Position numbers: made by a program. A stretch of 27,505 nucleotides of DNA, from the NCBI GenBank assembly GCA_041548245.1, contig JBFESZ010000018.1, positions 1 through 27,505 on the forward strand, in the 5' to 3' direction. This document shows positions 3,001 to 6,000 of this stretch, one piece after another (position 1 is the stretch's first letter; each line of letters starts with the position of its first letter). The stretch is from Sulfurimonadaceae bacterium. GTDB taxonomy: Bacteria > Campylobacterota > Campylobacteria > Campylobacterales > Sulfurimonadaceae.

Positions 3001-6000
3001 TGAATTAGCATTCTATCTTTCGGTGCCTATTTTGGCCGTGTTGGGATCGTACTCATACTTTAAACGTTTTTCTGCCTTTGCACACATCATCCTAGGTGTC
3101 TCTTTAGGTCTGGCTCCGATTGCCGGTGTTGTAGCTGTGCAGGCTGCTGTACCGCTATGGTCACTTTATCTGAGTGCAGGGGTTCTGTTCTGGGTGGCCG
3201 GGTTTGATCTGTTGTATTCACTACAGGACATCGAGTTTGACAAGGAGGAAGGGTTGCATTCAATCCCCTCAAAGTTTGGTGCAAAGAATACCTTTAGGAT
3301 TGCACAGTTCTTTCATCTGTTGACGATTGTCTTTTGGTCTGTATTTGTGATGGAAGCTGATCTGGGATTATTTTCCATGATGGCTATCGCTTTCTCTGCT
3401 CTTATGTTGGGGTATGAGCATTACCTTGTTAACAAGGATTTTACGAAGATAGACAGAGCTTTTTTTACAGTTAATGGATATTTGGGTATTATATTTATAA
3501 TTTTTATTATCTTGGAAAAGGTTTTTCAGTGAGTCAGCCGCGTTTAGTAAAAGCTCCCATCTCCATTGTCTATGATGTTGCAGATGAGAGTCTACATGAA
3601 CGTGAATATCATAGTCTGAGTGAGGCTGATGATGACGCTATCGGTCAATGGCTGAAGTTAGCTAAGGCGAGAGGAGAGACAAGTGAAAGCGATCCGATCA
3701 CACTGAAGCTTTTGGTTGAACTTCACAGGAAAGTCGATCATCTTGAGCGTCTGATCAAAAATGAGAAACCAAGCCGTGTTGGCTTGAGCTCAGAAGGAAA
3801 AATAGAGAGTATAGGTTTCGGTTACTTTAAGTTGGAAGACGATGAATTGGAAGTGGCGCAACAGTATTATGGCCGCATCAGTATGCCGACCTATCCTCAA
3901 CGAGAGATAGGTGTCTTCTTTGTTGCAGAGAACCCATCACTAGGCAAGATTGTAAGAATTCATGAGAGAGATGAAAAAGAGTGGGGCGCTTATGTGACGG
4001 CCCGTGAAAGAATCATGATACGCGAACTGAAGGGAAATGAATGAAAAAGGTATTAAGGTGAATACGGAGATAATACTCATTTCTTTTGGAGTCATTCTTT
4101 TCATTGTCGTTGTCTACTCGTATATGCGTGACAGTGAGAACACTCGTCAGATTCGTTTTTTGGCTAATACCATGGATAACTTTAATAAACAGCTCTTTGC
4201 TTTGGAGCGAAAAGTCGAAAAGATAGAGACACATATTAAACAGGACAATACGTCGATAGACGCTGATGAACTCGAAAGAAAGATGGAACAGGAATTGGCC
4301 TCAATGGCAGAGCCAATAGCCTTCAGTCTGAATGAGATACAGAACTCCTTCATGCATTTTAAAAAACAGATGGAAGCGCGTATAGGACATATTGAAGACG
4401 GTATGAAATCTATTGCTATGCCAAAAAGTTTAACAGGTCTAGATGATCAGAAAATCATCTCTTTGTATAAGCAGGGGATGGATGAAGAGTCCATTGCCAG
4501 AGAACTTGCGCTTTCCAAGGGCGAAGTTGAGTTCGCATTAAAAATCTCAAAAATGCAATAGTCGTTTTAAAGGCTTGTTTTAATTATAATATAAGCTATA
4601 GATGGTATAATTTCGGCCTACAAAACGAGAGAAATCGAGTTTCTTTAGAAATGTGCGTTCGTAGCTCAGCTGGATAGAGCACCGGTTTGCGGTACCGGCG
4701 GTCAGGGGTTCGAATCCCTTCGAGCGCACCATATGATAACCTCCAAAAAACAAGAACTTCCAAAAGATTTACTTGCAATAACGAAACAATTTGGTTTTGA
4801 CTTGATGTCACTTTATGTGCTATTTCAATTTAGAACTTCTCAGACTATTAAGAGTTTTTCATACAAATTCTTCTTATCGCTTTTAATTACGTACAAACAG
4901 ATTTGGAATCCAATGTACCGAGTTTGATTTATCTAATGTAAGATATTTCATGAAGTATTAAAACATCAGTGGCTGTTTGCCAATAGCAGAATAGTCTGAA
5001 TATTGTTCTTTTTAATGCTTTCAATTCAGACTTAAACTATCTTAAGCGGGTTCTTCGTCTATACGTATAGTCAAGTATAATATCATTTATCCAGTCTGTT
5101 ATCTTTACCATAATTATTTCCAGTGATTGTCTATTCAACTAAGCATATCTGATACCAATTTATGAAGTTGAGAATATGACAGAATGCAACAAAAATATCA
5201 TTTATTAACATAATCTAATCGATCAAGCCATGTATAAACTTGATGTTATGTAGGGTTGGTATAATTCTTTAAATTTTTATATATAGGTTTTTTTAATGAT
5301 CAAAAAATGTTTATTCCCTGCCGCCGGTTACGGTACACGCTTTCTTCCTGCGACTAAGGCAATGCCTAAAGAGATGCTGCCGGTATTGACCCGTCCGTTG
5401 ATAGAGTATGGTGTTGAAGAAGCAGTGAATGCAGGGATGACGACAATGGCAATCGTAACAGGACGTGGAAAACGTGCCATTGAGGATCATTTTGATATTT
5501 CATATGAACTTGAACACCAGATTCTTGGGACCCCAAAAGAACACTATTTGACCGAGATTCGTTCTTTGATCAATCAGTGTACATTTTCCTATACCCGACA
5601 GATCGAGATGAAGGGATTGGGGCATGCGATCTTAACGGGTGAGACTCTTATCGGTCAGGAACCTTTTGCGGTCGTACTCGCGGATGACCTGTGTGACGGT
5701 GAAGGTGAGGGCGTTCTTTCTCAAATGGTAAAGCTTTATGAGAAGTATCAATGCTGTATCGTAGCGATTGAAGAAGTTCCAAAAGACGAGACAAACAAAT
5801 ATGGAGTCATTGCCGGTGATGAGATAGAAGAAGGTGTATATCGGGTAAATGACATGGTGGAGAAACCAGACCCGCAAGATGCCCCGTCAAATCTGGCTAT
5901 TATCGGACGCTATATTTTGACGCCGGATATCTTTGATGTCATCCGTGAAACGGCTCCGGGTAAAGGCGGGGAGATTCAGATCACCGACGCACTGTTGACC

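Follow-up and report, generated by a model that had tools for sequence, protein, structure and literature searches.

The tRNA gene located at positions 4655..4731 of the stretch of DNA analyzed here (the window: 27,505 nucleotides, i.e., positions 1 to 27,505 of contig JBFESZ010000018.1 of GCA_041548245.1, a Sulfurimonadaceae bacterium assembly hereafter called the source genome) very probably encodes a functional and vertically inherited tRNA-Arg(GCG), used in a mode of CGN decoding without inosine that is ancestral across its order. This trait covers the whole order Campylobacterales (the classical epsilon-proteobacteria), it is not peculiar to the source genome or to its family, and it is already known and in print. 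The decoding can be described as follows: (i) tRNA-Arg(GCG) would read CGC and CGU, because an unedited G34 pairs with C and, from the wobble rules, wobbles with U; (ii) tRNA-Arg(UCG) would read CGA and CGG; (iii) tRNA-Arg(UCU) and tRNA-Arg(CCU) would read AGA and AGG; (iv) no inosine would be made, because both tRNA-Arg(ACG) and the A34 deaminase TadA are absent from the lineage; (v) this G34 set without TadA would be the ancestral state of Campylobacterales. A G encoded at position 34 cannot yield inosine by deamination.

The features of the locus are:

3529-4044, + strand: open reading frame (ORF) of 171 aa without Pfam match (ORF call, Pfam search)
4037-4561, + strand: ORF of 174 aa, DUF6115 (ORF call, Pfam search)
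4655..4731, + strand: tRNA-Arg, anticodon GCG, 77 nt (ARAGORN, Rfam RF00005, sequence read, fold)
4732..5295, no strand: A+T-rich spacer of 564 bp on the 3' side of the tRNA, free of ORFs of at least 80 aa

The gene is confirmed as a genuine, canonical tRNA-Arg and is the sole tRNA found by ARAGORN in the window. It scores 64.4 bits on Rfam RF00005 (gathering score 29) over model positions 1-71. By direct reading the acceptor stem has 7 bp and the D-arm contains GGAUA. The anticodon stem of 5 bp (CCGGU/ACCGG) closes a 7-nt loop, UU-GCG-GU, as the preliminary description had read it; the same arm (5 bp plus 7-nt loop) is folded by ViennaRNA. G34, C35 and G36 lie at 4688-4690, i.e., an Arg anticodon with C35 and G36 in a 7-nt loop, followed by G37. 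A73 is the discriminator base, and the gene includes the CCA end. The D-loop, AGCUGGAUA, has an A after G18-G19, and the D-arm aligns as identical to that of E. coli tRNA-Arg(ACG). In E. coli the identity elements of ArgRS are A20 and C35; by this alignment and reading both appear to be present, and charging by ArgRS would be expected from them. The specificity of TrmD is for G36-G37. TrmD (275 bits), CmoA (264 bits) and CmoB (330 bits) are all above their cut-offs in the source genome. The encoded TrmD would form m1G37 on tRNA-Arg(GCG), and the encoded CmoA/CmoB may possibly make cmo5U34 on tRNA-Arg(UCG).

The tRNA is 100% identical in 5 genomes of the same genus and 86-95% identical across the family. 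It has about 75-78% identity both to the Arg tRNA genes of E. coli (alignments of 72-77 nt) and to the UCG tRNA of its own genome. Against E. coli genomes there is no BLAST match at the default E-value; matches are obtained at E<=10. G37 is found in nearly all the GCG tRNAs compared. An origin of the GCG tRNA from ACG by A34G and one from CCG are both compatible with these values. In archaea the norm is a G34 tRNA-Arg(GCG) that reads CGY with no deaminase, and the reading proposed here is the same. The window tRNA differs from the archaeal one in being bacterial in type, as seen from the above identity to E. coli genes and from a D-arm and a variable loop that are those of E. coli tRNA-Arg(ACG). 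Archaea lack both I34 and an A34-specific deaminase, according to passages in print, those of Ehrlich et al. (2021, PMC8007984) among them.

The source genome has 37 tRNAs by whole-genome ARAGORN, i.e., one less than the 38 first announced, while the Arg set given at that time (UCU, UCG, GCG, CCU) is the one found. UCU and UCG are on contig C16, within a Pro-His-Arg(UCG)-Arg(UCU) cluster, GCG is in the window (contig C18) and CCU is on contig C84. Neither ACG nor CCG is among the 37, and GCG is thus the only CGY-reading tRNA found. With the UCG gene lying on a different contig, the earlier wording that the GCG tRNA stands «next to» tRNA-Arg(UCG) can only mean alongside it. In the 1058 ORFs that reach 250 codons, arginine codon usage is CGU 39.4%, CGC 13.1%, CGA 10.0%, CGG 4.8%, AGA 23.8% and AGG 8.9%. 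CGY thus makes up 52.5% of the Arg codons, in agreement with the earlier statement of more than half. ARAGORN and profile searches also bear out the central claim of the preliminary description, i.e., that CGU/CGC are read by a G34 tRNA together with tRNA-Arg(UCG), with no ACG tRNA and no TadA.

It is very unlikely that this picture is an assembly artefact, in which tRNA-Arg(ACG) and tadA were left out of the contigs and the GCG tRNA merely adds an isoacceptor to them. The assembly is indeed a draft of 165 contigs (95.95% complete, 5.67% contamination), from which tRNA-Tyr, tRNA-Ile and tRNA-Ala(UGC) are also missing. For that reason absence in the source genome alone is weak evidence, and the argument is carried by the counts over the order. 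The strict tRNA-Arg(ACG) pattern matches in 0 of 201 genomes of the order, including three single-contig members of the source family (G052, G068, G095) and the two-contig genome G017. The relaxed pattern matches in 3 of the 201, none with a tRNA-like D-arm, against 5 for the reversed-pattern control, i.e., at chance level. In one E. coli locus, taken as positive control, all four tRNA-Arg(ACG) genes are recovered by the ACG pattern. It must be kept in mind that the ACG patterns are tied to a canonical D-arm and would overlook an ACG tRNA whose D-arm departs from it; the strict D-arm pattern admits A or G at position 15, and no A15 variant of the D-loop is seen in the order. TadA (NF008113) is above cut-off in 0 of the 201 genomes as well. 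Given the complete relatives, the earlier worry, an unassembled ACG tRNA or tadA, becomes very improbable.

The strict GCG pattern is present in 150 of the 201 genomes, belonging to 22 of 26 families. It is absent from the other 51, a count to be read with the fact that this pattern missed real GCG tRNAs in some genera. One genome missed in this way (G266) has the Arg set GCG, UCG, UCU and CCU, i.e., the same four anticodons as the source genome, with 34 of its 36 tRNAs typed and the remaining two of class II by length. It also shares the Pro-His-Arg(UCG)-Arg(UCU) cluster. A further-reduced state exists within the free-living Campylobacterales, in one or more complete genomes: in G033 the GCG tRNA is lacking, and tRNA-Arg(UCG) is the sole CGN reader (49 of 49 tRNAs typed). 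Campylobacter concisus, Helicobacter rodentium and Borreliella americana all have a GCG tRNA; none of them shows the ACG pattern or, at E<=1e-5, a match to the TadA model. The trait had been placed at the level of the family; it is order-wide, and genomes named as Campylobacter and Helicobacter carry it too. Sharing by relatives had been given as 27 of 29; sharing stands, the count being 25 of 29 in the loci fetched here from 29 genomes. The phylum sample is made of genomes of the same order, and a single record labelled Nautiliales (L108), with a GCG tRNA, hints at the trait outside the order.

The second alternative is that the GCG tRNA is foreign (phage or island, archaeal origin) or a decaying pseudogene, and not the main CGY decoder. 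tRNA genes are common integration sites, which is a general point in its favor. The downstream side of the locus is not conserved: the product of 5296-6117 has no tblastn match in the loci of 29 relatives, and the tRNA is followed by the 564-bp A+T-rich spacer. In that spacer no terminator-like site is found, and promoter-like sites are at chance level (5 vs. 3.7 expected). On the contrary, the upstream side is kept. The two overlapping ORFs that precede the tRNA are recovered by tblastn at the loci of most of the 29 relatives: the product of 4037-4561 adjoins the tRNA in 18, and that of 3529-4044 is full-length in 17, plus one 30-residue end. This pair marks a conserved chromosomal position of the tRNA and is a matter of context, outside the decoding system. 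Moreover, the 3' end of the tRNA has no second copy anywhere in the window. Together with the identity of the tRNA within the genus and the family, its role as sole CGY reader found in the source genome and, against a pseudogene, its canonical structure and 64.4 bits, these results make a foreign or decaying gene extremely improbable.

The last alternative is that editing was replaced and not lost, i.e., that a deaminase other than TadA, such as the guanine-deaminase-like proteins of the family, edits adenosine of tRNA or mRNA; this is hardly credible, since the source genome itself has no such protein, since no A34 tRNA is found in the source genome (37 tRNAs), in G266 (34 of 36 typed) or in G033 (49 of 49 typed), since the carriers are patchy within genera and since the sampled proteins fit guanine or cytosine deaminase far better than TadA.

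The corresponding searches support the reading of an unedited G34. In the source genome the best PF14437 hit, at 13.6 bits, falls short of the cut-off (27) and lies in an open frame of 360 aa that is also the only one with PF00383 above cut-off. This frame is RibD (TIGR00326, 224.8 bits, cut-off 156), as had been stated, and it is the only deaminase of CDA fold in the genome. NF008113 has no match at E<=1e-10 in the source genome, and the best score in the order is 94.6 bits. This cut-off is a demanding one, reached by no more than 6 of the 14 control genomes, and a score below it does not by itself exclude a divergent TadA. Of the 48 sub-threshold ORFs listed, eight were read (the top six and those of G039 and G262), and all eight share GGPFGA, GFD(D/H) and a C-terminal Y; these features, assessed visually against the ORF with the 1wkq match, would place the eight ORFs in the guanine-deaminase-like group.

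PF14437 is above cut-off in 55 of 81 genomes of the family, and the sampled proteins reach 78-90 bits on the TadA model, two points that could speak for replaced editing. Classification is based on 20 loci drawn from these 55 genomes. The sampled proteins match either the guanine deaminase 1wkq (137 bits over nearly the full length) or the cytosine deaminase 1ysb (149 bits), and score 58-82 bits against TadA structures. In the one ORF compared for the guanine deaminase assignment, from the source genus (L043), the match to 1wkq (B. subtilis GuaD type) has 136.7 bits over residues 23-156, vs. 82 bits for 2b3j, the best TadA structure. Visual comparison placed a further 13 of the 20 fetched ORFs in the same group. 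The role of these «TadA-like» proteins had been called unclear; the sampled ones are guanine, cytosine or dCMP-type deaminase-like proteins and not TadA.

The preliminary description had found this trait in print for Mollicutes only, which does not hold: Diwan & Agashe (2018) and Ehrlich et al. (2021) report other clades. Diwan & Agashe (PMC6063277) describe repeated loss of TadA in which the target tRNA is lost and nontarget tRNAs are present. They report inosine loss in Spirochaetes and in a proteobacterial group whose Greek letter is dropped in that sentence in both the journal copy and the preprint (10.1101/251322); in a parallel sentence, where the journal copy lacks the letter as well, the preprint prints epsilon-proteobacteria. 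The dropped letter would thus be epsilon, from this parallel sentence and from the presence of CmoA/CmoB in the source genome. The source genome has the same absence of TadA and ACG, the same presence of nontarget Arg tRNAs, a free-living habit and an ordinary genome size. As far as the passages considered of that paper go, there is no substantive difference, and the source genome is one more member of the named clade.

In all sequenced Thermotogae and Spirochaetes, tRNA-Arg GCG replaces ACG (Ehrlich et al. 2021, PMC8007984). The replacement of the anticodon is the same here; Campylobacterota are unlisted and «epsilonproteobacteria» has 0 occurrences in the available text of that paper. For Mollicutes, Yokobori et al. 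(2013, PMC3711424) describe loss of tadA, gain of UCG, a change of ACG to GCG and then UCG alone. The end state GCG plus UCG without CCG, ACG and tadA is that of the source genome (both tRNAs present, the three others absent) and of most of the order, and the end state with UCG alone is that of the complete genome G033. The intermediates (weakened TadA, unedited A34) are a proposal of Yokobori et al., and end states alone are compared here. Unlike in Mollicutes, the reduction of a parasite genome is not involved, because the genomes of the order have 1.2-3.2 Mb and some lineages are free-living. A literature search gave no publication that states the loss of tadA by name for Epsilonproteobacteria, Helicobacter pylori or Campylobacter, most of the results being on base editors, and the available passages of PMC12255301, PMC11332805, PMC13433404 and PMC13602947 hold nothing relevant.

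By pattern scan, tRNA-Arg(GCG) is also found in Spirochaetota (Borreliella and Treponema records included), Thermotogaceae, Chloroflexota, Patescibacteria, Planctomycetota and SAR324. By record label, the 120 matches listed comprise 36 from Patescibacteria/CPR, 23 from Spirochaetota, 19 from Chloroflexota, 13 from Campylobacterota, 4 from Planctomycetota, 4 from delta-proteobacteria/Myxococcota, 3 from SAR324, 3 from Gammaproteobacteria or unclassified proteobacteria, 2 from Thermotogaceae, 1 from Nitrospinaceae, 1 from Archaea and 11 unlabelled (lower bounds for the scan as a whole). All of the 46 records checked by ARAGORN among these 120 are Arg-GCG. A separate observation is a 157-aa deaminase ORF of Levilinea, with 63 bits on the TadA model. 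It is a tentative and rather doubtful idea that decoding of CGY by a plain G34 without TadA is much commoner in bacteria than textbooks or print suggest, the absence of ACG and TadA outside the order sample being based on 5 named or complete genomes. A literature search at the level of titles gave no publication on such decoding in Patescibacteria or Chloroflexota. If the idea were true, the number of independent switches could turn out to exceed by far the five comparisons of Diwan & Agashe, and the question of G34, as in archaea, vs. A34/I34 as the ancestral bacterial state could be reopened.

The window tRNA is ordinary, because the trait, already published, is common to the whole order and occurs in several further phyla. 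The window thus carries a housekeeping tRNA gene, and the decoding habit it belongs to is order-wide and reported by comparative studies. This leads to the conclusions that: (i) reviews in which TadA and tRNA-Arg(ICG) are called near-universal in bacteria overstate the case, since Campylobacter, Helicobacter and Borreliella, all genera familiar as pathogens, do without them; (ii) a PF14437 match is not evidence for TadA, the proteins concerned here being probably guanine, cytosine or dCMP-type deaminases; (iii) annotation pipelines and codon-optimisation tables that follow the E. coli rule (ICG reads CGU, CGC and CGA) are inapplicable to these organisms.

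The window contains a single tRNA gene, predicted by ARAGORN:

4655-4731, + strand, tRNA-Arg, anticodon GCG

This gene scores 64.4 bits against the Rfam tRNA model (threshold 29). Direct reading gives a 7 bp acceptor stem, the D-arm GCUC-AGCUGGAUA-GAGC, a 5 bp anticodon stem (CCGGU/ACCGG) with the loop UU-GCG-GU, a normal T-arm, a discriminator A and an encoded CCA; the anticodon arm is also recovered by free-energy folding. The coordinates and the loop reported in the preliminary description are exact. The tRNA is a canonical, conserved gene at a conserved chromosomal position, the upstream gene pair being kept in 17-18 of the 29 relatives' loci. 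Its neighbours in the window are housekeeping genes (alpha/beta hydrolase, UbiA prenyltransferase, nucleotidyl transferase, TonB-dependent receptor), and no standout promoter-like or terminator-like signal surrounds it. The 3' side (4732-6117) is not conserved: an A+T-rich, ORF-free gap of 564 bp directly follows the tRNA, and the nucleotidyl-transferase gene (5296-6117) has no tblastn match in the 29 relatives' loci, none of which extends more than about 1.5 kb beyond the tRNA on this side. The region may mark the border of a variable segment, but the window contains no att-like copy of the end of the tRNA.

The genome of the window (G000) is a draft of 165 contigs (2.16 Mb, 40.8% G+C, 95.95% complete, 5.67% contaminated). 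ARAGORN finds 37 tRNAs on all contigs; the 38 counted earlier is the sole item of observation that differs. The Arg anticodons are UCU, UCG, GCG and CCU, with neither ACG nor CCG among the 37 tRNAs. The UCG tRNA had been placed next to the GCG tRNA: both are present, on separate contigs and without physical adjacency, the former within a Pro-His-Arg(UCG)-Arg(UCU)-Leu cluster. The top score for PF14437 is just 13.6 bits, and PF00383 is above cut-off in a single frame, which is RibD (TIGR00326, 224.8 bits). Among the Arg codons of 1058 long ORFs, CGU accounts for 39.4% and CGC for 13.1% (sum 52.5%). The decoding set proposed for this genome (GCG plus UCG, no ACG, no TadA, CGU/CGC as more than half of Arg codons) is thus borne out by ARAGORN, the Pfam and TIGR00326 searches and the codon counts. 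It must be added that tRNA-Tyr, tRNA-Ile and tRNA-Ala(UGC) are likewise absent from the ARAGORN set, which is therefore incomplete; judged from this draft alone, the missing ACG tRNA and TadA would be weak evidence.

The sequence of the tRNA is 100% identical in five genomes of the same genus and 86-95% identical among full-length matches in the family (Sulfurimonadaceae). One same-genus genome (G009) has two 100%-identical copies (C116:2244-2320 and C61:1010-1086), which reflects a true duplication or else a bin that is mixed or contaminated. tRNA-Arg(gcg) is present in 25 of the 29 fetched loci (29 genomes). A strict pattern running from the D-arm through the anticodon and ending in TGCG matches 150 of 201 sampled genomes of the order (22 of 26 families), while its ACG version, ending in TACG, matches none of the 201. 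A looser ACG pattern gives three matches in these genomes, none of them D-arm-like (five for a reversed control pattern). The ACG pattern is not blind, since it finds all four tRNA-Arg(ACG) genes of one E. coli locus. The «phylum» sample comprises genomes of the same order only, and every match listed ends in TGCG. Genera without the strict GCG pattern are mostly no exceptions: one such genome, G266, has 36 tRNAs (34 typed; by length the remaining two are class II), and its Arg anticodons are GCG, UCG, UCU and CCU, with a variant D-loop. In family f16, the D-loop of the GCG tRNA is shorter in two genomes.

PF14437 matches above cut-off occur in 55 of 81 family genomes but in only 2 of 7 relatives of the window's own genus, and G000 itself has no such protein. 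The ORFs at 20 fetched family loci (L034-L053) were read and grouped by eye:

Group 1, guanine-deaminase-like, 14/20 ORFs: motifs GGPFGA, GF(D/N/R)(D/E), C-terminal Y
Group 2, dCMP-deaminase-like, 5/20 ORFs: motifs HAEMNAI, PCSECSK
Group 3, cytosine-deaminase-like, 1/20 ORFs: motifs HAEIDCL, SPCDMCSG
Example of a small CDA-fold ORF: L043:1483-1953, + strand, in G003 (same genus as the window)

Against the NCBIfam TadA model NF008113 (cut-off 150), four of five tested family ORFs reach 78-90 bits, three of these aligning just to the first ~110 positions. Group 2 is best fitted by ComEB/dCMP deaminase (105 bits, also below that model's cut-off). Two family ORFs were compared with PDB sequences: the group 1 ORF, from the window's genus, gives 136.7 bits with B. 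subtilis guanine deaminase (1wkq), aligned along almost its full length, vs. 82 bits with the best TadA structure, and the group 3 ORF gives 149 bits with cytosine deaminase. None of the 201 order genomes exceeds the NF008113 cut-off (best 94.6 bits); of the 48 matches listed, eight ORFs were read, each of them a member of the guanine-deaminase-like group. This cut-off is strict (passed by only 6 of 14 control genomes); the case against TadA thus draws on the absence of a substrate tRNA and on other deaminases fitting better, and the cut-off does not carry it by itself. The three kinds of deaminase gene are patchily spread through the family, and purine/pyrimidine salvage deaminase genes appear to be gained and lost fast there.

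Neither an A34 tRNA nor TadA was found in G000, and tRNA-Arg(GCG) is its sole CGU/CGC-cognate tRNA found. By the wobble rules, under which G34 forms a standard pair with C and a wobble pair with U, tRNA-Arg(GCG) would read CGC and CGU, and tRNA-Arg(UCG) would read CGA and CGG, as there is no CCG tRNA. ArgRS recognises A20 and C35; both are present in the window tRNA, which would thereby be charged. The substrate of TrmD is G37 adjoining G36, and TrmD, encoded in G000 (275 bits), is expected to act on G37 of this tRNA. Two further genes score above strict NCBIfam cut-offs, each passed by only one of 14 control genomes:

G000:C7:34402-35271, - strand, CmoB (330 bits)
G000:C12:12283-12981, + strand, CmoA (264 bits)

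Synthesis of cmo5U34 in the lineage is therefore probable; this modification might be placed on tRNA-Arg(UCG) and may be a means for single U34 tRNAs to cover family boxes. The mechanism of the preliminary description, i.e., G34 decoding of CGU/CGC without inosine, is judged right, and the feature real.

One exception to the GCG tRNA of the order is real. G033 (family f10, genus g18; complete, single contig, 2.0 Mb) has 49 tRNA genes, all typed, with Arg anticodons UCG and UCU only:

G033:C1:1792920-1792996, Arg tRNA
G033:C1:1925014-1925090, Arg tRNA

UCG being the sole CGN-box anticodon, one tRNA must read all four CGN codons. The Ala, Gly, Pro, Thr, Val and Ser(UCN) boxes of G033 are served exclusively by U34 tRNAs. 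The most reduced Mollicutes also have a single CGN-reading tRNA, whereas the G033 genome is not reduced. The strict GCG pattern is found in only 1 of 14 genomes of f10, and this UCG-only, U34-only set is seen in one free-living family of the order.

Two records labelled Sulfuricurvum sp. share 95% identity with the window tRNA. Anticodon-arm strings of family f12 are identical to Campylobacter showae and C. concisus records, and that of genus g55 to a Helicobacter rodentium record; the order is thus Campylobacterales, the classical epsilon-proteobacteria. A GCG-pattern scan in which each species is represented by a single genome gives at least 120 matches; 46 of the 120 listed were checked, and all 46 are tRNA-Arg(gcg) by ARAGORN.

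GCG-pattern matches by record label, among the 120 listed
Patescibacteria/CPR: at least 36
Spirochaetota, including two Borreliella species and Treponema: at least 23
Chloroflexota, including Levilinea saccharolytica: at least 19
Campylobacterota: at least 13
Planctomycetota: at least 4
delta-proteobacteria/Myxococcota: at least 4
SAR324: at least 3
Gammaproteobacteria or unclassified proteobacteria: at least 3
Thermotogaceae: at least 2
Nitrospinaceae: at least 1
Archaeon: at least 1
Unlabelled records: at least 11

C. concisus, H. rodentium and Borreliella americana have no TadA-model match (E≤1e-5) and no ACG-pattern match. The ACG pattern is also absent from Levilinea and a closed Chloroflexota genome, with top TadA-model scores of 63 and 40 bits, respectively. 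The former score is that of a 157-aa CDA-fold ORF (L217:1489-1962, + strand), below cut-off, in a genome that has tRNA-Arg(GCG).

GCG plus UCG and UCG-only states are described for Mollicutes (Yokobori et al. 2013, PMC3711424), to which the preliminary description had confined the printed record. This is refuted by two articles: tRNA-Arg GCG replaces ACG in all sequenced Thermotogae and Spirochaetes (Ehrlich et al. 2021, PMC8007984), and TadA, traced over 1093 bacteria, is ancestral and repeatedly lost, with an unexplained loss of inosine in Spirochaetes and in proteobacteria whose Greek letter is dropped (Diwan & Agashe 2018, PMC6063277). In the journal text one letter is dropped throughout, while gamma and delta are printed. 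The dropped letter is read as epsilon, because the preprint (10.1101/251322) prints {epsilon} in a parallel sentence on cmo5U and G000 has CmoA and CmoB as that sentence requires.

The feature of the window is thus a clade-wide, vertically inherited decoding state, already published, and the tRNA annotation of any Campylobacter or Helicobacter shows it. Patescibacteria and Chloroflexota, hardly open to sampling by the 2018 survey, bear on the spread of the GCG state and on whether it is always derived, a question that goes beyond the window.
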